A DNA stretch of 33,260 nt from a virus (taxonomy: Duplodnaviria > Caudoviricetes). The translations under genes and the position numbers were made by a program. The notes beneath the pieces are model-generated. The model had not been told where the DNA came from and did no database searches. It was given only the letters and a program-made list of their open reading frames with translations. The stretch covers positions 1 to 33,260 of the IMG/VR virus record IMGVR_UViG_3300023256_000001; one strand, 5' to 3'. Positions 1,757-33,260 of this stretch are shown here, piece by piece; the first letter of the stretch is position 1, and the number at the start of each line of letters is the position of its first letter.

Positions 1757-4700
1757 TTTTTTCCTCCTTTCTTTTTCTTCTTTTTGCCAAGAATATTAAA
1801 ATCAAAAGTAACCTTTTCTTTTTTAGTAGCTCCTCCACCTTTAGTAATGTAATCGAAATCAATCTTATCACTTTTTGCTTTCTTTACTATAGCATCTCTC
1901 ATTTCAACAGTTTTAACCTTCCCTGTTCTCTGAAACTCCTCCCATATCTGCTTAGTGATTTTTGGAGTGGTAGCTTTGCCATATTTTATCTGAGAAGTCT
2001 GGACACTGAAAGGGTCAGCTAGGATGGTCTTTAAAGCAATCCTTTTCTTACCAAGTCTGTATGCTCTCTTTCTAGGTCTCCCTACCTTTGTTTTCTTCTT
2101 AGGTTTAACCTTGCTCCCTCCCCATAGGATAGGTGCTGGTGTAAAAGGTGTTGTTGGAACTGTATCAGTTATTGTAATTACATCAAATATTGATTTCTTA
2201 GCTGTACCATATGCCATCTTAGATTTCTGTGTGACAGCTAGCTTCTGCTTTTGCTCTTGAGCTTGAGCAGTATCGGTCAATGATATAGTTCCAAAGTCAA
2301 ATTTCTCCAGCTCTTTAGACCTAGTACCCTGTATTGTAAGCTCTGATGTTGCAACAGCAGACCTCTCAACTTTTGCAGTTGATAAAGATAGAAGAGATTT
2401 TAGTCTTGTATCAATTCTTGTTTCTGATTTCTGAGCTACTTTAGATATTTGTTTTGTCCCTAGAGCTGATGCTAGCTTAGTCTTACCACTTGTTACAGTT
2501 CCTTGTTTCCCTTTTTTAACAAGTCCGCCTAATCCCCCACCATAAAGTCCTGTAGGTGTCGTAACAACATCTTTTGGTATGGTTCTAGCTAGTAAGATAC
2601 CGACCTCTTCAAATATTCCAACTCCTACTTCTCCATGTTGTCCTACATCTCCATAGGATGTTGTGATTTCAGGTATTCTCCCTGTAGTTGGTTTAATGCT
2701 TTTTGAGAAAAAGAACTGCTGTCCTTCCTTTGCATCTCCCATTCTAGCTTTACCAGACCAATCTTCTAATATTTTCCCCTTGCCTTTTGTCTTTACTAAT
2801 TTTCCTCCAGTTTTACTAAGACTCTGAGGTAATTTGAATATCTTACCTGATAATTTCATAGTTCCCTTTTGAAACATTCCAGAGTATTCTCCTTTATGTG
2901 AGAACAAATCAATCTTTATTTTTCCCAGTTCTTTAGGATATACTTTTCCGTAAAATGTTTCTTTAAAAGTAAAAGGTTCTTTTAGTACACTACTGTAACC
3001 CTCTGACCCTACTGGTTCTTGATAACCATATGCATAATATCCTTTCTTACCAGATAACATCTGAGAGCTACCTTTGAATCTGTAGATGTTTTCATATTTA
3101 CCTTTTATTATTAAATCTGCTGTTGTATCTGCATCTAATATCTTATAATGTGATTTTTCTTTTCCTATGCCAGTCAGTCTTTTGAATGCTCCTCCTTTAT
3201 CAGTCCACTTAACAGACCCCCTTCCAGTAGAAACATGCATCTCTTTTCCTACTTTGTAACCAGCTCCTTTGAACATGACATCTGCTTTAGTCCCTTCAAT
3301 ATCATATTTACCTGATAATTCAAATTTAGTGACTCCTCCTTTTGGTGCATCTTGGAAAACTTCTAAATCTGTAGCTTTCACATCCACTGTTTTTATCTTA
3401 GGCATTCTACTCTTGAACAGTTTACCTCCAGCTTTGAAAGAACCATAAGCAAGACCTATAGTAAAACCAGTCTCAGCAATAGCAGAGGGTAAATCATAAG
3501 GAGACTCTACCTTAGTTCTAAGTAATGTTGCACCAGTTGACACAGCTCCTATTCCACCAACTGCTACAAGACCCCCTTTAGTACCAAGTAAAGAAGCTCT
3601 ACCTAATGTTGTAGCTCCAAACCTTCCTAAAGTTGTAGATGTTGCACCAGCTACACCAGAAGCACCAGCTCCTACACCAGTAAGAACATAACCAGTTCCC
3701 AATGTAACTGTTGGAAGTATAACTCCACTAACTACAGCTCCAGAAGAAATTACTTTACCAGCAAAAGAAAACCCTCCTTTTTTAAGAGAAGATTTCAGAC
3801 CTAAACTATACTCAGCAATTTTCTCCTGACTTCTCTTAGTGAAACCTTCATCTCCAGTTACACCACTAGCTATACCAGAAGCAACAGCTCCTATTCCAAG
3901 AGGAGACTGGACAAGACTAGACATAGCAAGTTGAGTAGAATGAGCATCCAAACCAGCTAGACCTTGTTTTACACTTGTCGCAAGACCTATTGGTGGAAAT
4001 ATCAATGCACCAGCTTGCTCTAAAATGGATGGTTGTTTATATCCAACCTTTCCAGTATAAACAAACTTATGAACATCAACTGCTGATGGCAACCCAAACT
4101 CATATGCATCTTCTTTAACATCAAGAGTATATCCTTTACCTTTATAATCAATCAATGTTGTCTTAGATTCTTTCATCTGTGAAAGACTAGACTTCAGCTC
4201 AGGTAATGATTTCTCATATGTTTTAAAAGTACCCTTCTGCTCCTGTAACTTAGCTTGCAGATACTTTTTTGCACCTTCCTTATCAAATACATTAGCTACT
4301 CCCTGAAACTTAAATGTTTTCTGACCTGACCCTTCAATGCTTGCTATCTGAGATTCTATGCTCTCAATGTTCTTAGTGATTATTGGCAAACTAGATTCAA
4401 CAGTTGCTATTGATTTTTCAGTGAGTCCAATGTTTCCTGTTGTTTTATCAATCTCTGTGGTAAAATCAAAGTCTTTTGGGTCATAACCAAATTCTTCTTT
4501 GTAAGGAGAAACATCTCCCCATTTCCAATCTGTGCTTTTCTTAGGTGTAAACCATACCTCCCCTTTTTTTCTTCCTGTAGTTGGTATTGTTGACATCTGA
4601 CCTTGTACTGGTGTAATCTGTGCTTTTATTGTAGATTGTTTAAAAGTATCTCCAGCTAATACCTGTACTCCTCTTCCCCCTACATCTAAAGATGGCATAG

Positions 4701-5382
4701 TACCAAAAGAAGTTTTACCTGTGGTATCTATTTCCTGAATGTCAAGACCTGTGGTATCAGCTATTTTAGTAGAGGTTATCTCTTCAGGTTTATATTCATA
4801 AATCATCAGACCTCCACCGACTGTCTCTTTAGCTTTAGGGACATGTCTCCTTACATTCCTTCCACTTCCAAGACTGACAATACTTAGAATCTGTCCCCCT
4901 CTATTAGATATTTGATTTCTCCAAGAATCAGTATTTTTAACATTACCAACAAAACTTCTTACCTCACCAGATTTAGTTTTCCATTTGACCCTGACAGAAA
5001 AACCTCCACCAGCACTACTTCTACTAGATGATACTTTAGGAGCTGGTTTAAAATATTCATATCCCTCTCCCTTCTTTCTTATCTTCCAACCAGCAGATTG
5101 TTTTTCCTTCAAAGACTTCTCTTGTTTTTTAAGTTCTGCTTCAGATGTACTCAGCTTAGTTTCAAAACCTGTGAAAGAACCCATCTCTGACTTGATTCCT
5201 TTTATCCTAGCTAATCTATCATACCAGAATCTAGGAGTAGTTCTAGGATGCACCCTTCTAAGAGACTCAATGGATTTTTCTCCAGCTTTCCTTCTCTCAC
5301 TGAGTATGCTTCTCTGCTTCTGAATAGATTTATATTTAGTCTCAATATCAGTAAAAAGACTACCATAGGTTACATTTGCCAT
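1753..5382 (-). CDS. Very large (~1209 aa) protein: coiled-coil N-terminus, Gly/Ala-rich hydrophobic core, very basic C-terminus; probable virion/DNA-delivery protein
   Basis: Long ORF; likely start ATG at 5382 (MANVT) in a TAATG overlap with the upstream ORF and GGAGG SD. Function is inference. Confidence 0.75.
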   Translation of the reverse strand: MANVTYGSLFTDIETKYKSIQKQRSILSERRKAGEKSIESLRRVHPRTTPRFWYDRLARIKGIKSEMGSFTGFETKLSTSEAELKKQEKSLKEKQSAGWKIRKKGEGYEYFKPAPKVSSSRSSAGGGFSVRVKWKTKSGEVRSFVGNVKNTDSWRNQISNRGGQILSIVSLGSGRNVRRHVPKAKETVGGGLMIYEYKPEEITSTKIADTTGLDIQEIDTTGKTSFGTMPSLDVGGRGVQVLAGDTFKQSTIKAQITPVQGQMSTIPTTGRKKGEVWFTPKKSTDWKWGDVSPYKEEFGYDPKDFDFTTEIDKTTGNIGLTEKSIATVESSLPIITKNIESIESQIASIEGSGQKTFKFQGVANVFDKEGAKKYLQAKLQEQKGTFKTYEKSLPELKSSLSQMKESKTTLIDYKGKGYTLDVKEDAYEFGLPSAVDVHKFVYTGKVGYKQPSILEQAGALIFPPIGLATSVKQGLAGLDAHSTQLAMSSLVQSPLGIGAVASGIASGVTGDEGFTKRSQEKIAEYSLGLKSSLKKGGFSFAGKVISSGAVVSGVILPTVTLGTGYVLTGVGAGASGVAGATSTTLGRFGATTLGRASLLGTKGGLVAVGGIGAVSTGATLLRTKVESPYDLPSAIAETGFTIGLAYGSFKAGGKLFKSRMPKIKTVDVKATDLEVFQDAPKGGVTKFELSGKYDIEGTKADVMFKGAGYKVGKEMHVSTGRGSVKWTDKGGAFKRLTGIGKEKSHYKILDADTTADLIIKGKYENIYRFKGSSQMLSGKKGYYAYGYQEPVGSEGYSSVLKEPFTFKETFYGKVYPKELGKIKIDLFSHKGEYSGMFQKGTMKLSGKIFKLPQSLSKTGGKLVKTKGKGKILEDWSGKARMGDAKEGQQFFFSKSIKPTTGRIPEITTSYGDVGQHGEVGVGIFEEVGILLARTIPKDVVTTPTGLYGGGLGGLVKKGKQGTVTSGKTKLASALGTKQISKVAQKSETRIDTRLKSLLSLSTAKVERSAVATSELTIQGTRSKELEKFDFGTISLTDTAQAQEQKQKLAVTQKSKMAYGTAKKSIFDVITITDTVPTTPFTPAPILWGGSKVKPKKKTKVGRPRKRAYRLGKKRIALKTILADPFSVQTSQIKYGKATTPKITKQIWEEFQRTGKVKTVEMRDAIVKKAKSDKIDFDYITKGGGATKKEKVTFDFNILGKKKKKKGGKK

Positions 5383-5528
5383 TACTTGACCCTCCAAAAA
5401 GATAATACTCTAGTCATGGAGCTGAAACAATGTTTACATCTTGCTGGAGCTTTCTTGCTAGCTCTTTTGATAGTTGTCCAAGTTCTCTTACACTTGTCAC
5501 ATTTACATCTACTTCTATAAAATTTCAT
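5382..5528 (-). CDS. Small Zn-ribbon protein (48 aa)
   Basis: Own translation MKFYRSRCKCDKCKRTW...ARCKHCFSS..; two CxxC pairs; GAGGGG SD; stop overlaps next ATG. Confidence 0.75.
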   Translation of the reverse strand: MKFYRSRCKCDKCKRTWTTIKRASKKAPARCKHCFSSMTRVLSFWRVK

Positions 5529-5579
5529 AGTAATCCCCTCTAATTCTTATGCAATCTCATAAAGTAGAAAATACTGTTA

Positions 5580-5596
5580 TATTATAAAAACCCTAA
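5580..5596 (-). promoter_or_regulatory. Shared viral promoter motif TTAGGGTTTTTATAATA (copy 1)
   Basis: Identical 17-mer at 24891-24907 and 16/17 match at 29458-29474; contains a TATA-like TTTATA; each copy is upstream of a minus-strand operon. Confidence 0.7.
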
Positions 5597-5611
5597 TGAT
5601 TAAAAAAGGTG

Positions 5612-5662
5612 TGAGGAGACAATAAAAGAGAGATGATTAGTGATTAACTTTTTGTCTCCTCA
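5612..5662 (-). terminator. Hairpin followed by U-tract on the minus strand
   Basis: TGAGGAGACAA (5612-5622) / TTGTCTCCTCA (5652-5662) perfect 11-bp inverted repeat, followed on the minus strand by CACCTTTTTT. Confidence 0.5.
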
Positions 5663-5742
5663 TTGTTCTAGTGGATGGTGACACATTCCTAGAAGCAATA
5701 AATTCCAGCAATACAAGTATATACAAAGATATATTTAATACT

Positions 5743-5964
5743 TTACCATTTAATAGACTCAAGACCTTTCTTTCTGAATTGTCTCCCTAGTACCTTGCTC
5801 TTATGAACTTTGCTTTTTGGGAACTTCCAAAGGGTCTTTATCTTGATAGTATGTCTGACTGTTACATGAGAGCTGTAGACCTTGATAACTCTTTGAACCC
5901 TGAACTTACCATCTCTATCTTTATAGAGAACATGTTTTCCAAGCAAGTCTTTTTTGTCTATCAT
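5743..5964 (-). CDS. Small basic beta-rich (SH3-like?) protein; contains the gapped match to array unit A
   Basis: ORF track 5743..6006; likely start MIDKKDLLG at 5964. Fold is a guess from the pattern LLGKHVLY..DGKFR..RVIKV..SHVTV. Confidence 0.7.
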   Translation of the reverse strand: MIDKKDLLGKHVLYKDRDGKFRVQRVIKVYSSHVTVRHTIKIKTLWKFPKSKVHKSKVLGRQFRKKGLESIKW

Positions 5965-6110
5965 ACTATTACTATAGACTTGTAGCAATATATATGTTTG
6001 TAACATATAATGTTAATTATTAATACAATAATCATCATATCCAAACAATTTCGACAGCTATTTAAATCAAATAATGTTTAAAAAGTGTTATAAATGTTGT
6101 TTTTACAAAA

Positions 6111-6225
6111 AGTCCCCTTCTGGGATGTGAAAATATCACACTCCTATTTTATGGGAGTGTCATGTAGTGGGAGTCCCACCACATGAGACTTTCATGGTTC
6201 GACATAAGATACTATGTCTGGGGAT
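6111..6225. other. Dense cluster of hairpins (structured RNA or origin-like element)
   Basis: Inverted repeats TGTGA/TCACA (6126-6140), ACACTCC/GGAGTGT (6138-6160), CATGTAGTGGG/CCCACCACATG (6161-6185), GACATA/TATGTC (6201-6218), with possible closure TCCCC/GGGGA. Confidence 0.5.
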
Positions 6226-6349
6226 AACTACTAAAATATTAAAGAATGAAGAGGGGTAGAGTGAAAGTAATATTCCTCTGAGCTTAACTACACTTTACTA
6301 TACTACACTTTACTTCACTGTACTCTTCTAAACTTTACTCCATTCTATT

Positions 6350-6380
6350 GAAATAGTAGGGAGTTGCACCCTACCATCTC
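6350..6380 (-). repeat. Array linker type 1, 12-bp stem/7-nt loop minihelix (copy 1)
   Basis: Minus strand GAGATGGTAGGG-TGCAACT-CCCTACTATTTC; all 12 positions pair allowing G-U. Confidence 0.85.
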
Positions 6381-6513
6381 TTCTGTACTGGACTGTACTC
6401 CACTCCAATTCACTCCACTGAACTAGACTGAACTATACTATGCTTAACAGGACTTGGCTTTACTGTACTTTACTACACTCAACTACAGTTAACTAGACTA
6501 TACTGTATTGATT

Positions 6514-6544
6514 GAAACAGTAGGGAGTTGCACCCTACCATCTC
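6514..6544 (-). repeat. Array linker type 1 minihelix (copy 2)
   Basis: GAGATGGTAGGG-TGCAACT-CCCTACTGTTTC; the single difference from copy 1 changes U-A to U-G and keeps pairing. Confidence 0.85.
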
Positions 6545-6625
6545 TTCTGTACTGGGACTGTACTCCACTAGACTTGACCTGACTTGACTATACTTGACAT
6601 AACTTCACTTCACTTTACTATAGAT

Positions 6626-6779
6626 ATGGTAAGTCTGAGTTCTTTACTTTACTTCACTTCACTTTACTGAGCTACACTTAACTTGACTACACTTAACTAA
6701 ACTCGGCTTAACTCCACTTTACTTTACTGTACTTCACTATGCTATAAGTGAAATGGCAAGTCTGAGTTCTTTACTTTAC
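6626..6779 (-). repeat. Array linker type 2, two copies (ATGG[T/C]AAGTCTGAGTTCTTTACTTTAC at ~6626 and ~6753)
   Basis: Direct comparison of the two segments: one mismatch. Confidence 0.8.
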
Positions 6780-6845
6780 TTTACTGAACTTCACTAAACT
6801 GGACTTCACTCAACTATACTATACTAAACTAAACTCTGCTAAAAT

Positions 6846-7188
6846 CTAATCAATCAATGGTTTAATGGCATAAACAAACTTACTTAATTCATTATATTGT
6901 TTGTATCTTTCAACCCAGTTATCCAGCTCATGCTTTGCTCTATCAACTACCTGATTCCTATAATGTTCATTACTGAAACACATCTGTAAATCAACATATA
7001 CTTTTTGCTCTGAATCATCTTTTGGTATAACAGAATAAAAAGCTCTAATTGGTAGAGAGTCTCCTGTCTCAGTTATTTCAATAGTTACATGATTAACTAT
7101 GTTTCTTACCTGTTGTAATCTGTATTCATGTCCAGCTCTTACATCATCCCATTCAATGTAGTTATATAATAAATGTTTTTTCTTCCAT
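6846..7188 (-). pseudogene. 5'-truncated/frameshifted gene of the viral EWDD..A..YR..Q.R family, directly upstream of the pentamer array
   Basis: Open frame 6846-7187 encodes WKKKHLLYNYIEWDDVRAGHEYRLQQVRNIVNHV...IRAFYSV...RAKHELDNWVERYKQYNEL..(113 aa) but lacks a start. The SD-linked ATG at 7188 is one base out of frame and gives MEEKTFII*. Confidence 0.75.
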
Positions 7189-7243
7189 TATTGTGTCACC
7201 TTCTTTATTATTATTGAATGTAATATATTATTAATATAAATAA

Positions 7244-8230
7244 TTATCCATTGATGGGAACTTCATCTAGTATCCTTTCATCTTCAGGGACTTTGTTTGC
7301 TTCCATCTCAGCTTTTCTCTTGATAAACCGAGCAAGTCCATCTGGAATGTTGTAATTATATCTGATAGCATTGACTTCAAAAATGATATTATCTTCTGTA
7401 CTTCTCTTGGAGAGGAATTGTTTATTTTCTTTATTCTTAACCAAATCTTCCACAATTTCCTGTTGAGTCATTCTATTAGCATCTATCTCTTTATCATCTT
7501 CATTCTGACCAGCTCTTTCTCTCATTTGCTCAACTATCTTGTCTTTGAAAATCTTAGAATGCTCCTCATATACAGCTTCCATTTCTTTAGGTGGTCTAGC
7601 AATATTAATCTTTTTTAGAATTAATTTAACTCCATGAGCATCTTCATTTCTCATATTGAATCTACTGTAAACATAATAGACCTTTCCAGTTCTCTTATTA
7701 TACTTGACATCAAATGGTCTAGCGATAGCACAATCATTTCCCATCCTGTTCATTTCATAAAATCCATGAAACAATTTTCTAGCTTGAGAATCAATATAAG
7801 AAACATCCTGAGTTACAAAATAAACAATGGGTCTATACCTACCAAACACCTGTAAAACATATGAGATGGATTTGTTTGCGGTGTTGTACCATTCACGAGC
7901 TGGCATGCCAACTCCAGCTTCATCCCAAACAATAGCTCCACCTATGATATTCTTTTTTTTAATATCCTGTAGAGCTGTCATAAAATCATTTGGAAAATAC
8001 ACAACTCTCTTCCTGATATTCTCCTCAAAGGTCTTATCTAATACATGACTCATTGTAAGAGCTGTCAGGGATTTTCCCACTCTATGCTTCCCTGTGACCA
8101 TTCCTAGATAGTTGAATTTGAATGTATGTATTCTTTTAAAGATATGTCTAAAATAAAGACTTGCCAATGTCTTACCATCAACATCTCCAAAATAGTCTAA
8201 ATTATCGTTTAAAGATAATCTGTCCATCAT
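7244..8230 (-). CDS. P-loop ATPase, probably virion morphogenesis/genome extrusion (Zot/pI-like)
   Basis: Walker A GKHRVGKS, Walker B IVWDEAG, downstream FVTQ..YIDSQAR motif typical of Zot/pI-like ATPases. Confidence 0.85.
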   Translation of the reverse strand: MMDRLSLNDNLDYFGDVDGKTLASLYFRHIFKRIHTFKFNYLGMVTGKHRVGKSLTALTMSHVLDKTFEENIRKRVVYFPNDFMTALQDIKKKNIIGGAIVWDEAGVGMPAREWYNTANKSISYVLQVFGRYRPIVYFVTQDVSYIDSQARKLFHGFYEMNRMGNDCAIARPFDVKYNKRTGKVYYVYSRFNMRNEDAHGVKLILKKINIARPPKEMEAVYEEHSKIFKDKIVEQMRERAGQNEDDKEIDANRMTQQEIVEDLVKNKENKQFLSKRSTEDNIIFEVNAIRYNYNIPDGLARFIKRKAEMEANKVPEDERILDEVPING

Positions 8231-9926: not shown

Positions 9927-11018
9927 ATGAAAGACAGAGAGAAGAAAATAATAGTGTTCATAGTATGCATTCTCAGTATCTACCTGATTAAGACAGCTCT
10001 CACTCCTCACTATCTTGAAGTTGTTGAGGACAGACACCTCTATGACTTTGACCATTACCAAGAGATAAGTAAATGGTTCTTAGGCATAGATGGACAAGAG
10101 ACATCAAGACAGTACCAGTACCCACCTCTATATCCTATCTTAGTTGCTCCTACAGTATCATTAGGTATTGAGACACCAGAATGTTTTACTTATTTGCTCT
10201 TCCTTGACAATATTTTTATTACTCTTACCTTCATACCATTGTTTCTATTGCTAGATAAATGGTTGTCCTTTCACAACAGTATAGGTCTCAGCTTCTTTCT
10301 CTGCATGTTCAATCTTGGTTTTACTCCTAAGAACATAGGATTTCCAATAGCTCTCTCCACATTATTATTTACTACTTTTATTTATTTCTTTTATAATGTT
10401 GACAGTAGATTAAGACACAGCTCAATATTCTATGGTCTGCTTATATTCACCAAATATGTTTTCTTTTTCCTTTCACCAATGATACTTGTATGGATATACC
10501 TTAGACACAAACATTCAAAATTGATAACAACAGTCTTTTTCTTTACCTTAGCATCCTTATTGTTTTCTCTATGGAGTCTCAGGAACATCTTACTTCATGG
10601 TCTGAGCATTGAGGGAGCAATAGGTGGATATAGTGACAGCTTTAATGCTAATGCACCTTTGAATGTCCCTACAGCTATGATTCCTGATAAAATCTTTTCA
10701 ATCTTTACAGATGGTATCTCAACTGCAATAGTAAATTGTTTTATCATATTCATATTTGGATTTCTTGTTATTGTCTATTTCTATCATATGAAAAGAGATA
10801 TATTTATGAAAATATTTAATGTAAAAAAAGTATACCATTTTTATATTGTCTTGATGTTGAATTTCTTGATATTCTTTTTTGTACTTGGAATGACCTACAG
10901 AAATACAATCTTTCACTGGAGATACTTGACCTATCTGCTACCTGTATACATCTCATTAGGCATTATGCCATTCCTGAGAATAATAGCATACAGACAATCC
11001 AGATATAAAAAGACATAG
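9927..11018 (+). CDS. Multi-pass GT-C fold glycosyltransferase (PMT/ArnT-like)
   Basis: About 9-10 TM helices, acidic first loop (YDFDHY), YPPLYP motif, TKY and C-terminal WRYL..LLP motifs typical of GT-C. Confidence 0.75.
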   Translation: MKDREKKIIVFIVCILSIYLIKTALTPHYLEVVEDRHLYDFDHYQEISKWFLGIDGQETSRQYQYPPLYPILVAPTVSLGIETPECFTYLLFLDNIFITLTFIPLFLLLDKWLSFHNSIGLSFFLCMFNLGFTPKNIGFPIALSTLLFTTFIYFFYNVDSRLRHSSIFYGLLIFTKYVFFFLSPMILVWIYLRHKHSKLITTVFFFTLASLLFSLWSLRNILLHGLSIEGAIGGYSDSFNANAPLNVPTAMIPDKIFSIFTDGISTAIVNCFIIFIFGFLVIVYFYHMKRDIFMKIFNVKKVYHFYIVLMLNFLIFFFVLGMTYRNTIFHWRYLTYLLPVYISLGIMPFLRIIAYRQSRYKKT

Positions 11019-11421
11019 CAATAACTGGAACTAGAGGGTATTCAATCTTCAAGAACTCTTTTTTAGTTACTTTGAACTTATGAAACAGATAGATAGTCCA
11101 GAGTACCCACATGACAAGAAAGATGCCTAGAAAGAGAGAGAAAGCATCTGAGGAGTCAATGAACAAAGCTAGTCCAACAAAGATAAGGAAGTCTCCCACA
11201 CCAAAACTGAAGAGAGTTGGAATAGCAAAAATGAAAGCAGTTATGATAACAACTCCTATGGTGTCTATGATGTTGTTACCAGAATATATCATGTATAAGA
11301 AACCACAGAGAGAAATTGAAAAAGGAGTTGCCAGCTCTACCCAATGTGTCTTGTAATCATGCTTGCTAGCTCTGAAGAGTACAGCACATGCAATTAACAA
11401 GAATAAATACTCTATCATCAA
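10963..11421 (-). CDS. A24-family prepilin peptidase (PibD/FlaK-like aspartic intramembrane protease)
   Basis: First Asp motif ASKHDYKTHWV after TM1, GxGD motif FGVGDF, C-terminal YPLVPVI, about 5-6 TM. Confidence 0.82.
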   Translation of the reverse strand: MMIEYLFLLIACAVLFRASKHDYKTHWVELATPFSISLCGFLYMIYSGNNIIDTIGVVIITAFIFAIPTLFSFGVGDFLIFVGLALFIDSSDAFSLFLGIFLVMWVLWTIYLFHKFKVTKKEFLKIEYPLVPVIAMSFYIWIVCMLLFSGMA

Positions 11422-24862: not shown

Positions 24863-24890
24863 GGATTATCAATAACTGAAATCACTATCA

Positions 24891-24907
24891 TATTATAAAA
24901 ACCCTAA
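24891..24907 (-). promoter_or_regulatory. Shared viral promoter motif (copy 2)
   Basis: Identical to 5580-5596. Confidence 0.7.
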
Positions 24908-24914
24908 ACATTGT

Positions 24915-29135: not shown

Positions 29136-29351
29136 CTAGAAACCTCTTGCAATCATAATGAGAGCTAAAAGTCCTAAGAAAGTTGGTATAACTGACAAAA
29201 CAGTGTTAGGTATACCAGTAATGTTAGATGAATCAAGAACATCTTGTATAGTTGGGATAGCTACTGCCGATATGACAATGACCACAACCACAATGGATAT
29301 AACAAAATCTACGGGGTTGACCGCCCCTTTAAATCCGTTTTTACTAAACAT
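29136..29351 (-). CDS. Major coat protein, spindle-shaped virus (SSV1 VP1/His1-like), class III signal peptide
   Basis: KG/AVNPVDFVISIVVVVIVISAVAIPTIQDVLDSSNITGIPNTVLSVIPTFLGLLALIMIAR: two hydrophobic helices, P in helix 1, N-I-T sequon in the turn, TG..T.L...P.F pattern; very strong SD GAGGAGGT, own promoter, long U-tract after. Confidence 0.85.
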   Translation of the reverse strand: MFSKNGFKGAVNPVDFVISIVVVVIVISAVAIPTIQDVLDSSNITGIPNTVLSVIPTFLGLLALIMIARGF

Positions 29352-29457
29352 TGGTTTTCTACCTCCTCTTCAATTACTGTCTCTTTTATTTACATGTGTT
29401 AAATCGCCAAAGCTCACATGCTTTGCAAAGATTCTATGAAGGTAGATATTTCTGTGA

Positions 29458-29474
29458 TATTATATAAACCCTAA
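29458..29474 (-). promoter_or_regulatory. Shared viral promoter motif (copy 3), upstream of the MCP
   Basis: TTAGGGTTTATATAATA; 16/17 identical to the other copies and shares the AATGT extension with copy 2. Confidence 0.7.
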
Positions 29475-29478
29475 ACAT

Positions 29479-29964
29479 TCATTCTTTGTTTTTTTCATTC
29501 CTGTGGTAACTGATATGACAACCCCTACAAAAGAAATAGATGAAGAAAGGCATATCATAGTTCTCATGGTGACACATTGTAGCTGGTTTTTCACATAAAG
29601 CACAGTCCTCCATGATGAAAGGTGTTTTGCTTCCATGTACTACAACATTTAGTTTCATTCTTGCAGTTTCTTCTTTTTTATGATTGTTTCTGTAGTTCGC
29701 ATGTTCTTTATTTATGTGTTCTTTGTTTTCTTGATGATGTTCTTTATTATATTCTCTTTTTTTCTCTCTGTTTTTTTCCCTGTATATTTTGTCTGATGCT
29801 TTGTTCTTTTCTGGATTTTCTTCTTTCCAATTTTTAGTTTTTGCATTTATATGTTCTTTGTTTTTTAGATAATGTAAATGTAGTCTTAGTTTTTCTTTTT
29901 CTTTATTTTTTTGATAATATTCTCTTTGTTTCTCTCTATGTTTTTCTTTATCTTTATATGGCAT
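29479..29964 (-). CDS. HNH-like endonuclease with Lys/Glu-rich N-terminal repeats
   Basis: CALC...CHHENYDMP...FCRGCHISYH; repeated Y..KNKE units. Confidence 0.75.
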   Translation of the reverse strand: MPYKDKEKHREKQREYYQKNKEKEKLRLHLHYLKNKEHINAKTKNWKEENPEKNKASDKIYREKNREKKREYNKEHHQENKEHINKEHANYRNNHKKEETARMKLNVVVHGSKTPFIMEDCALCEKPATMCHHENYDMPFFIYFFCRGCHISYHRNEKNKE

Positions 29965-30634: not shown

Positions 30635-31105
30635 CTAGTCCCTCCCCATGACAAAACTGATTGTAGTCAAAATCAACAGCACATTAAACACAATAACAAG
30701 CAATACATTCACCTCAAAAGGTAAACCTTCTGCTCCAGTTGTAGTAAACACAGGAAAAAACATAATGTTGCAAATCATATTCAAAATGAAAACAGGAATT
30801 GCAATAGATAAAATGCTTTGACCTATATATCCAGCACCAGCAAATCCAGTAATCACAGCTCCAGCTAAAGACAAACCCATAAATGCAAGACCAATCTCAG
30901 AAAAAACACTTTGCCTAATATCTTCCAACAGGTCTCCAGCAGTATAAGGTTTTACATCTTCCAGTGATTCAACATCTTCATTCTCACCTAGTACCTCAGT
31001 TGAAGCATATTGTAAGATTGGACTTGTAAAACCAAATAGATACATGCCAATTATCAGACCTAAGAGAATCATAGCAAATACGGTTACACTCCCTTTCATT
31101 TTCAT
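30635..31105 (-). CDS. Multi-TM membrane protein with possible class III leader (MKMKG/S)
   Basis: Four hydrophobic segments; TAATG overlap with the adhesin gene. Confidence 0.72.
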   Translation of the reverse strand: MKMKGSVTVFAMILLGLIIGMYLFGFTSPILQYASTEVLGENEDVESLEDVKPYTAGDLLEDIRQSVFSEIGLAFMGLSLAGAVITGFAGAGYIGQSILSIAIPVFILNMICNIMFFPVFTTTGAEGLPFEVNVLLVIVFNVLLILTTISFVMGRD

Positions 31106-33260
31106 TATCTACCTCTCATTAAATAAATCAATACCACATAAATAATGGTTGTTGAAAGCATTATCCACCATGCACTAATACCACCGATAATCATATCTGG
31201 TTTCAATGTAAACATTATCCCCATGACAATAATTCCACCTACTCCTATCATAGCACCAGCTCCAAACTTAGCTAAGAACCCCATGACAACCAGCATGAGT
31301 ACAATGGTTATTATCAACCACATTTCATCAGGGATTTCATCTACCCTCTCTATGACATTCTGGTAAATCCAATATTCTCTGCATCCATCTTCAGTTCCAA
31401 AAATATACATTGGAAAACCTACTTTTTTTAATGCACAGACAAAGGCATATCTACCAGATTTGTTGGTTGTTAAATAGTTGATAGAACCTCCAGAGCTTGT
31501 CGATTGATTGTCTGAATATAGAAGTTGCCAACCTATAGTTACATTATTAGCATCAAGAGTTGAATTATAATAATAAACACTAGCAGAAAACCATGCTATT
31601 TGATTATCAATACTTGAAATATTGTAAAACAAATTAAGTGGTTCTTCATGCTGATAATCAACTGGTTCTATACTCCAAGTAATATTATGAAAAATACTAT
31701 ATTCAACATCAGGAATAGAACCACTGAATAATAATTTGAAAGTATGAGTCCTAATCTCAGTATCAGTTACAATGTCTGCAATCTCAGTCAAATACCCATC
31801 TTTAGTAATGACTATCTTGTACTGTTCTCCATCCATAAGATAGATTTCTGTAGTACCCTGAGCTGATGTATACAGAGATGATACTTGCTGAAACTCCCCT
31901 CCAATGTATCTTTTGATGTTCATGTAGGCATTCTGGACAGGTTGATTAAATTCATCAATGACATTCAACTGATAAAGACTACTTCCCTCAGTAGGTGGTA
32001 AAAAGGTGTTCATACCGTAATAGCTTCCCTCTATCACATCTCTATAATATATTCTTGTCCTATATTCATCATGCAGATATGTTACTATTATCTTATCAAA
32101 TACAGGAGATGCATCAGGAAGTATTGTAATAATATCTCCCTCAAGTGTAAAAGGTGGATAATAAGGAGTTGCACCATCCCATGTTGAAACATTTGTTGTT
32201 GATTTACCTCTAGGGTCTGTCTGAAACACAACATAAGTAATTGTCTCATTTTCAATAGCTGAATACCCTGTGAATGTTTCACCCTTCTCTGAATAATTCT
32301 GAGATGCACTAAAAACAAATCTTATCTTGTCCCCTAACGGAAGCTGTGATATATTCAAAACATGTGGATTTGTATTATTTCTGCTCTCATAAGTCTGAGA
32401 CCCATCCTGATTGAATATTTCAATATCAAATTCAAGACTTTCATTTGTTACTTCATCAAAACAATTAGTGACCATTCCACCTATTGAGAAATTTTCTTGG
32501 TCACTATAAGTTCCATTTGCATGACTCCACATGGCATAATAATAGCTCCCTTCCACATATGCAACATTTTTTTGTTCTCCTGTGTAATTATATAATTCAT
32601 CTCCATCAGTAACAGATGTTGGATAACTGTCAACTTTTCTTCTTACAACTGTTGAATCAGCACCAGTCCCCTTAGTCCATGTTACCAATAATGAGAAATT
32701 TTCTTGTATTGCAGAGTCAATATTTGTTGGTGGACATGGATTAAAAACTATATTTGATGTTGTATTATTATCTGAATGTTTATCCCCTGTCCAACTCCAT
32801 GCCTTATAAAATTGATAATTACCCCATCCTGTATCATCATCATAAGTAGTTCCTGTATCATTATAGATAAGAGTTCCATCTTCAATGTTCTCTGGATAAG
32901 AATTTGGTTTCCTTACAATTACCGTCTTATCTGCACCTGTTCCCTTAGTCCATGCTAAAGTTACAGTACAAACATCAAGAGTGGATGTAAACCCTGTTGG
33001 TTGAGTTGTCTTTGTCCAAAAATCATCTTGTTCATTACTAATTGTAAAAAATGTTGCATTTTTAATCCATGCAGTAACATAATAATGTATCCCCTGTGAT
33101 AAATTATAATCAAAGTGTGTAAAAGTTGTATTTCCCTGTGCATTAACAGTTCCCACACCTGTCATGTTCAAATCAAAATTATCTTTTGTAACAGGATTTG
33201 TCGTTCCAACCCAAAAACCATATTCATATTCTCCAATACCACCTTGATTTATATATCCTG
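31105..33260 (-). CDS. C-terminal part of ~1200-aa glycoprotein/adhesin with FN3-like repeats and C-terminal TM anchor
   Basis: Duplicated WTKGTGAD.TV..RK..SYP....DG...YN.TG modules, many N-x-S/T sequons, three C-terminal TMs; frame is open through the circular junction. Confidence 0.85.
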   Translation of the reverse strand, partial: GYINQGGIGEYEYGFWVGTTNPVTKDNFDLNMTGVGTVNAQGNTTFTHFDYNLSQGIHYYVTAWIKNATFFTISNEQDDFWTKTTQPTGFTSTLDVCTVTLAWTKGTGADKTVIVRKPNSYPENIEDGTLIYNDTGTTYDDDTGWGNYQFYKAWSWTGDKHSDNNTTSNIVFNPCPPTNIDSAIQENFSLLVTWTKGTGADSTVVRRKVDSYPTSVTDGDELYNYTGEQKNVAYVEGSYYYAMWSHANGTYSDQENFSIGGMVTNCFDEVTNESLEFDIEIFNQDGSQTYESRNNTNPHVLNISQLPLGDKIRFVFSASQNYSEKGETFTGYSAIENETITYVVFQTDPRGKSTTNVSTWDGATPYYPPFTLEGDIITILPDASPVFDKIIVTYLHDEYRTRIYYRDVIEGSYYGMNTFLPPTEGSSLYQLNVIDEFNQPVQNAYMNIKRYIGGEFQQVSSLYTSAQGTTEIYLMDGEQYKIVITKDGYLTEIADIVTDTEIRTHTFKLLFSGSIPDVEYSIFHNITWSIEPVDYQHEEPLNLFYNISSIDNQIAWFSASVYYYNSTLDANNVTIGWQLLYSDNQSTSSGGSINYLTTNKSGRYAFVCALKKVGFPMYIFGTEDGCREYWIYQNVIERVDEIPDEMWLIITIVLMLVVMGFLAKFGAGAMIGVGGIIVMGIMFTLKPDMIIGGISAWWIMLSTTIIYVVLIYLMRGR

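Follow-up and report, generated by a model that had tools for sequence, protein, structure and literature searches.

A likely solo VIPR guide array with an AGU scaffold in a probable spindle-shaped archaeal virus, and its natural target in a related virus

The virus record and its genome

What does an array of short guide-like units do in a viral genome that carries no gene for the protein that should use it, and what do its units read? The question arises from the record IMGVR_UViG_3300023256_000001, a sequence of 33,260 nucleotides that was analyzed in full and is called the window here. The window is a complete circular virus record (completeness, 100%) with a 33-nt terminal repeat and a GC content of 34%, and it is found in salt-lake metagenome runs: at least half of its sampled words are present in 13 of the 20 runs listed, 8 of which are possible sources of the record. 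It encodes an integrase (PF00589; E value, 6e-12), a Zot-like ATPase, and two membrane-type proteins of ~1,200 amino acids. When the ATPase was compared with 50,697 phage records, it matched only Haloferax virus LSV-48N (E value, 3e-15; 87% covered; 25% identity), a virus described in the opening lines of abstracts as lemon-shaped. In addition, a 71-amino-acid protein (29136-29351) gave weak Atlas leads, at 0.88, to two spindle-virus capsid families, His1_capsid (12% of members) and VP1_VP3 (29%). On account of the ATPase match and these capsid-family leads, the virus is probably a spindle-shaped (lemon-shaped) archaeal virus, and a sigma-70 promoter scan was accordingly uninformative. It resembles lemon-shaped archaeal viruses, represented by LSV-48N and by those with a His1/fusellovirus-type capsid, in its ATPase, its capsid leads, and its circular genome with an integrase. 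It differs from LSV-48N in its GC content of 34% and in an ATPase identity of only 25%.

Several other features of the genome were observed. The 71-amino-acid protein is a candidate spindle-virus major capsid protein, and the product of 10963-11421, which has a weak Peptidase_A24 match (E value, 0.009), could process it. A 41-nt motif with a TATA-like core occurs three times on the minus strand (5561-5601, 24872-24912, and 29439-29479), each time upstream of a gene block, and is a candidate late promoter. One 1,200-amino-acid gene spans the circular join on the minus strand (31105-33227 joined to 1 to ~1480), and its orthologue in the related locus L003 is 1,199 amino acids long.

Anatomy of the pentamer array

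The minus strand of positions 6282-6842 holds five tracts of NN-AGU pentamers, 85 pentamers in total (A, 12; B, 24; C, 13; D, 21; E, 15). The trimers comprise 70 AGT, 7 AGC, and 1 GGT, and the variable positions use 15 of the 16 dinucleotides; those of tract A read, on the minus strand, GG AA TT AG AC GA AA GT AT AA GT TA. The features of the region are as follows, where L001 and L002 are metagenome fragments of related viruses and L003 is the locus of a complete relative, G001.

5743..5964, minus strand: neighboring gene, also conserved in relatives, for a basic protein of 73 amino acids (pI 10.8), or of 87 if translation starts at the upstream ATG (6006)
5875..5910, minus strand: self site of unit A, 20/24 under the 1-nt-skip code; orthologous sites 23/24 (L003) and 24/24 (L001, L002)
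6157..6190, no strand assigned: inverted repeat on the downstream side of the array, strong (z -4.7 and -5.1) and not observed in L001 and L003
6282..6341, minus strand: guide tract A, 12 NN-AGU pentamers, decoding to codons 19-30 of the neighboring gene family
6350..6380, minus strand: linker hairpin of 12 bp on the 3' side of tract B and candidate vrRNA tail; only the minus strand folds (z -3.2 versus -0.3)
6387..6506, minus strand: tract B, 24 pentamers, target not found
6514..6544, minus strand: same hairpin repeated on the 3' side of tract C (z -2.55 versus -0.05)
6557..6621, minus strand: tract C, 13 pentamers, target not found
6622..6640, minus strand: short linker after tract D, with AAAGAACTCAGACTT in common with the linker after tract E; no stable fold
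6641..6745, minus strand: tract D, 21 pentamers, target not found
6746..6767, minus strand: short linker after tract E, without a significant fold
6768..6842, minus strand: tract E, 15 pentamers, beginning directly after the stop of the accessory gene; target not found
6846..7184, minus strand: truncated vap-family accessory gene (phrog_15946), which has lost its first 41 codons and retains residues 42-153 of the intact 153-amino-acid protein P0009
7170..7200, minus strand: deletion junction 7184/7185, with a GGTGA ribosome-binding-like motif and an ATG (7186-7188) out of frame with the vap interior

The array does not have the features of a CRISPR array: its period is 5 nt instead of long direct repeats with contiguous spacers, and no cas family was found among the 30 open reading frames (ORFs) scanned in Pfam. 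Rfam gave no notable match in 5400-7300, apart from one chance row. The end of the array coincides exactly with the start of the sequence common to array-free relatives.

A fixed trimer alternating with a variable dinucleotide is the plan of the VIPR guides, in which, according to the text of bioRxiv preprint 10.64898/2026.04.26.720920, GGY/NN units align with a 1-nt skip on the wobble position and repress a rival phage. The subunits of SUSP1 Vipr are reported to clamp each fixed trimer while the NN pairs read two bases of the DNA and skip the next, and the bound complex represses transcription. A structured 3' tail is described in the published text as needed for the end of vrRNA assembly. 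The 12-bp hairpins in the linkers after B and C fold on the minus strand only and thus fit a minus-strand RNA; fold prediction without pseudoknots gave no stable structure for the sequence that follows A, D, or E. The inverted repeat at 6157..6190 is possibly the end signal of the array transcript.

Unit A against the carrier's own gene

The original prediction held that unit A, read with one base skipped between dinucleotides, nearly spells out the neighboring gene, and that the skipped base is codon position 3 of the ORF at 5743-5964. Recomputation confirmed both points: unit A agrees with the self site, whose resident codons are GKFRVQRVIKVY, in 20 of 24 bases (83%) and 9 of 12 dinucleotides, the mismatches falling in units 5 (both bases), 6, and 7, and guide and gene lie 370 bp apart. 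The mismatches had also been called conservative substitutions, a description that fits T to V and E to Q only loosely. In the permutation test that had been proposed, 20/24 was seldom reached: with the array masked in its own genome, none of 300 shuffles attained it, and in larger sets of 3,000 each it was attained 13 times when the order of the dinucleotides was shuffled and 6 times when the bases were, never going higher. The analytic genome-wide chance is ~0.002, rising to ~0.02 over five units and to ~0.08 over the twenty tests of the scan (five units by four skips). Because of this number of tests, the self match alone is only moderately significant and is suggestive rather than decisive.

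Of the five units, A is the one that was decoded. Units B to E gave nothing above shuffles when compared with the window genome, L001 to L003, the complete genome of G001, 169 proteins of the vap family, and fetched loci totaling 628 kb, and exact 22-base gapped patterns from B, C, D, and E (one subwindow per unit) had no matches in viral contigs. A likeness of unit C to the vap motif EEYRLQQ was rejected, since 12 of 60 shuffles were equally good. Unit E at skip 0 has a 23/30 match at +4973, which was equaled by 2 of 300 shuffles and is one of the 20 tests.

Target site of unit A in related viruses

If the unit is a guide, a homologue of the neighboring gene with T-E-K at the mismatched residues should carry a perfect gapped match, as the original prediction supposed. 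Such a homologue was found. The exact 24-base gapped pattern of unit A had no matches in viral contigs and two in the metagenome collection, both 24/24 (L001 and L002), with none elsewhere. Both lie inside the orthologue of the neighboring gene, reading GKFRTEKVIKVY, and this orthologue precedes the large gene that its counterpart precedes in the window. The sequences of L001 and L002 hardly differ in this region and therefore count as one lineage. The complete relative G001 scores 23/24 (L003), which none of 40 shuffles reached, and homologues known as proteins only can score at most 20, 22, 22, and 20 of 24. Skip 1 alone gives a clear signal: in L001 and G001, the top scores with the other spacings tried (skips 0, 2, 3, and 4) are 16 to 17.

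The footprint also bears out the proposed insensitivity to synonymous change, as the skip falls on the wobble base. Between L001 and L003, 7 of 12 third positions differ, versus 1 of 24 read positions, and 1 of 12 residues differs in the footprint, versus 20 of 61 outside it. The footprint is thus conserved at the read bases and variable at the wobble, so the guide reads the most conserved stretch of the gene and ignores its most variable bases.

Among the seven alleles compared with guide A, the self allele scores 20 and is tied lowest, the others scoring 20, 20, 22, 22, 23, and 24. The guide is near the family majority, with T in five of the seven alleles and E in five of the seven. A driven escape of the carrier from its own guide is not supported, because the resident footprint has no excess change (2 to 3 of 12 residues, versus 17 to 21 of 61 outside) and two of the six other alleles are as distant from the guide. 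The tree of the seven proteins has none of its four branches supported.

Neither L003 nor the L001/L002 fragments show an array or a vap gene in the corresponding slot, and in L001 and L003 other genes occupy it. The original prediction placed the target in a competing relative. The part that stands is the 24/24 orthologue in a related virus; against the part concerning competition, no L001-like contig over the target gene was found in four lake runs, a search of contigs only, which cannot prove absence.

The 73-amino-acid protein had no Pfam, PHROG, or fold match of weight. Its three-stranded N terminus resembles a small beta-barrel and is loosely reminiscent of Tudor, SH3, or Sm folds, with nothing significant; the best fold match is an archaeal Hfq-like protein (Z 3.1; root mean square deviation [rmsd], 3.0; 41 aligned). 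From the small, basic protein and this N terminus, a nucleic acid-binding role might be guessed. The intergenic stretch upstream of the gene (6060-6110) is nearly identical in L001, while the gene itself is 69% alike at the DNA level, and this stretch is a candidate promoter or origin. Farther along, an unlisted 48-amino-acid ORF on the minus strand (5382-5528), conserved in L001 and L002 just before the 1,214-amino-acid gene, has CxC-x2-C and CxxC motifs and is likely a zinc binder to judge from them. The large gene of L001 has an in-frame stop at 4013-4015 that is read through in L002 and is probably an assembly error.

The truncated accessory gene, its haplotypes, and the missing vipr gene

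The accessory gene beside the array is a remnant. With regard to the winged-helix-like fold of vap proteins, a confident model of the accessory protein (pLDDT, 95.8) has a best match of only Z 5.5 (rmsd, 2.8; 74 aligned), with many winged-helix rows tied. The intact form, P0009, is on a record from a 35,258-bp contig that is 1,998 bp longer than the window; the longest contig of P0002, which has the same self allele, is also 35,258 bp, and an intact haplotype thus appears to persist with the same self allele. The deletion junction of the window is bridged without differences by a 1,173-nt contig of run X11. In run X5, the sequence beyond a loose end at 7184 is that of intact N-terminal vap codons, and long and short haplotypes are thus found together in one run. 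A third form, in which 6898 is joined to 7170 via other sequence, occurs in runs X5 and X2. The contig depths in X5 are ~118 for the flanks, 53 for the window junction, and 43 for the third form, depth not being copy number. The second deletion is likely real, with two different deletions segregating in one population, and it is likely rather than proven because joints with a 30-letter side may derive from other organisms and because depth is not copy number. Both short haplotypes retain the array. Contigs with further vap-family sequence and with different ACT/NN units are also present in these runs (loose ends at 7030, 7124, 6293, 6324, and 6642-6677).

Profiles A3 and A5 gave no match to vipr when run against all six reading frames of the circular genome, although control loci matched, and vipr was not detectable in G001 either. 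A genome without the effector gene cannot let the guide act alone. From the linkage of the vap family to vipr, the lost ~2 kb probably held vipr. A search of viral contigs with the vap alignment gave no loci; locus L006, from genome contigs, was considered as a vap relative and a lead to the lost vipr and proved to be a false locus. No vipr was found in 401 genomes of the phylum of the L006 genome (a search without a positive control) or among plasmids, and none of the 65 Vipr homologues listed was on a contig of 35,258 bp.

Linkage of AGT/NN arrays and the vap family to vipr

A scan for eight AGT/NN units gave at least 119 loci (39 with short flanks, and many of them simple repeats), and a Vipr-like match was present at 17 of the 119 listed. 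Profile A3, built from 7 of those 17 loci, matches SUSP1 Vipr in the PDB (36pp) at 6e-40, and a second profile, built from database relatives of the L020 protein, matches it at 6e-13. In L020 and L038, which were found by the array pattern alone, the gene order is vipr, vap, array, and this vap is of the family of the truncated gene in the window (E value, 4e-26). The same family adjoins vipr and GGY/NN pentamer arrays in all four named phages checked (L126 and L133 to L135), which were taken from 33 records, many of them redundant; their Vipr profile matches are at an E value of 5e-44 or better. The vap-family remnant, the bridged junction, and the longer haplotype mark the window as VIPR-null by deletion at a VIPR locus, a deletion that probably took vipr with it.

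Other AGT/NN loci differ in their layout. L043/L114 (2360-3070) has runs of 79 + 60 nearly unbroken units, with 15 dinucleotides and no visible tails, directly after a Vipr-like gene; these tracts are far longer than the 9 to 16 units of published VIPR arrays. In L013, L037, L058, L067, and L075, arrays lie between vipr and a second gene, and their hairpin linkers contain GTTCGATTC, which we take to resemble a tRNA T-loop; these linkers might recruit tRNA-processing enzymes. L055 (1900-2750) has vipr, an accessory gene, and then at least five tracts split by a conserved ~70-nt linker. L020 has a degenerate NGT/NN array of ~700 nt (2980-3660) after vipr-vap, followed at 3725-5440 by a 571-amino-acid gene that presumably resembles TnpB/Cas12-type nucleases. 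Single tracts of 8 to 9 units with an AT-AT start lie near replication-initiator-like genes in L019, L026, L039, L079, and L108, without a Vipr match, and are possibly another element.

Proposed mechanism and alternative explanations

It is probable, at roughly 0.7, that the five tracts are a VIPR guide array orphaned by deletion, in which unit A steers a Vipr borrowed from a co-infecting virus to silence a gene of the carrier's kin. The deletion would have taken away the start of the accessory gene and, probably, the vipr effector gene as well. The array would still be transcribed, from the minus strand, and Vipr would be supplied in trans by siblings of the intact haplotype or by other VIPR viruses in the lake. 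Guide A would then bind the rival's gene and block its transcription. At the self site, the match covers units 12 to 8 and is followed by three mismatched units (7, 6, and 5); by analogy with the 3'-to-5' guide assembly and R-loop growth given in the structure preprint (bioRxiv 10.64898/2026.04.26.720927), the R-loop would likely stall after the five 3'-proximal units, so that self would be spared. No mismatch-tolerance data were found in the text of that preprint, in which the words "mismatch" and "seed" are absent. Partial autoimmunity is possible, because the self match is 83%, versus no self match of ≥80% in the clades that the first VIPR preprint tested. Against the proposed mechanism count the four units without a target, the failure to see vipr in the long haplotype, the single lineage behind the two 24/24 sites, which had no contig over the target gene in the four lake runs, the lack of a folded tail after tract A, and a resident footprint without excess change.

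The alternative that survives best is that unit A was once a real guide against kin and that the array has been silent cargo since the deletion, there being no Vipr to load it. We regard this as possible, though improbable: the genome has no vipr, no tail fold follows A, D, or E, and the target lineage was not seen in the four lake runs, but the scaffold is intact (70 AGT and 7 AGC among 85 trimers), both short haplotypes have kept the array, and contigs with intact vap, foreign vap-family sequence, and ACT/NN units occur in the same runs, which speaks against a relic.

A further development of the borrowed-Vipr reading appears doubtful. It would have guide A costly to its carrier through VIPR autoimmunity and the effector genes deleted twice, leaving an armed minority and a guide-only majority that borrows Vipr to silence kin, as in a public-goods game among lemon-shaped archaeal viruses with an AGU code.

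It is also conceivable that the cassette was captured from an unrelated element that attacked this virus family; once in a variable slot of the present virus, it would have been disarmed by a deletion, since guide A also hit its new carrier. This would suit an array that ends exactly where the sequence common to array-free relatives begins, a slot filled by other genes in L001 and L003, and the existence of two short haplotypes. We nevertheless find it unlikely, as no donor was found (vap searches of viral and genome contigs yielded no true vap relative) and an intact haplotype with this self allele seems still to exist.

Less credible still is a guide copied from the carrier's own ancestral T-E-K/R allele that tunes, or once tuned, the neighboring gene, in which case the match in relatives would reflect shared ancestry. 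The gene is only 370 bp away, the guide differs little from most of the family (T and E each in five of seven alleles), and a match of 83% passes the 80% target cutoff of the first VIPR preprint (10.64898/2026.04.26.720920). Yet the self site is tied lowest of the seven alleles, the text of the same preprint gives no self match of ≥80% in the clades tested, and a protein tree without a supported branch does not let the order of change be inferred.

An accidental match of a degenerate pentamer microsatellite has a negligible probability: many AGT/NN pattern matches in viral contigs are indeed simple repeats with one or two NN types, and the self-match scan comprised 20 tests, but 15 of 16 dinucleotides are used, a vap-family gene adjoins the array, the predicted 24/24 site lies in the predicted gene and nowhere else, and the exact metagenome matches together with scores that rise at skip 1 only refute chance.

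Comparison with published VIPR systems and implications

The core mechanism and the existence of solo guides are already published in the 2026 preprints. The array of the window resembles the VIPR systems of SUSP1 and P. fulva type II in its tracts of fixed trimers and variable dinucleotides, its 1-nt skip on the wobble position, its virus-against-virus target, and the vap-family gene adjoining the array. It differs from them in an AGU instead of a GGY scaffold (GGT occurs in 1 of 85 pentamers), in the lack of vipr and the truncation of vap, in tracts of up to 24 units versus 9 to 16, and in a self match of 83%, versus none at the 80% target cutoff or above in the clades for which the text of 10.64898/2026.04.26.720920 reports tests.

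Solo vrRNAs are described in the text of bioRxiv 10.64898/2026.10.15.759431 as guides kept after deletion of vipr-vap in VIPR-null phages of the SUSP1 family and in F5 satellites; their self match is below the match with the rival, and they presumably use the Vipr of another virus. The window is like them in having an array without the protein genes and in a self match of 20/24 versus 23 to 24 of 24 in the rival. It has five tracts, versus one or two in the solo vrRNA phages and satellites as described there, and its target is an ordinary conserved gene that the carrier has in common with its kin, whereas the solo vrRNA targets named in the text are vipr, vrRNA, satellite, or REP. Its carrier is a probable archaeal spindle-shaped virus, and archaea are not mentioned in the text of that preprint. 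With no vipr in the genome and a haplotype that has the intact accessory gene, the array is a solo (VIPR-null) one; it is neither a complete VIPR system nor a canonical GGY array and is likely a solo vrRNA array on a noncanonical scaffold.

Noncanonical arrays have been reported. YNNNG variants are named in the methods of 10.64898/2026.04.26.720920, and WGT/NN arrays adjoining Vipr-like genes are described in bioRxiv 10.64898/2026.10.21.760802; the AGU/NN units of the window fit both patterns. In the text of these reports, the evidence for such arrays is co-location with Vipr-like genes only, to which the window adds a natural 24/24 target. We found no paper on VIPR in spindle-shaped viruses, figures and data tables aside; the logos of Fig. 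S17 and Data S3 and S4 may list AGY arrays or this locus. Compared with the published text, with the same restriction to text, what is new is that an AGU guide has a perfect target in nature, that its carrier is probably a lemon-shaped archaeal virus, that the guide is directed at the orthologue of one of the carrier's own genes, and that long and short haplotypes coexist.

The VIPR code has been tested, according to the published text, on GGY guides in bacterial phages. Given a natural 24/24 target of an AGU guide in a probable archaeal virus, the wobble-blind code with its 1-nt skip likely holds across scaffolds and domains. The alleles of the target gene form a natural graded series (24, 23, 22, and 20 of 24) that bears on how many mismatches, and which, separate kin from self, and a natural population with complete and deleted cassettes bears on why guide-only viruses arise.
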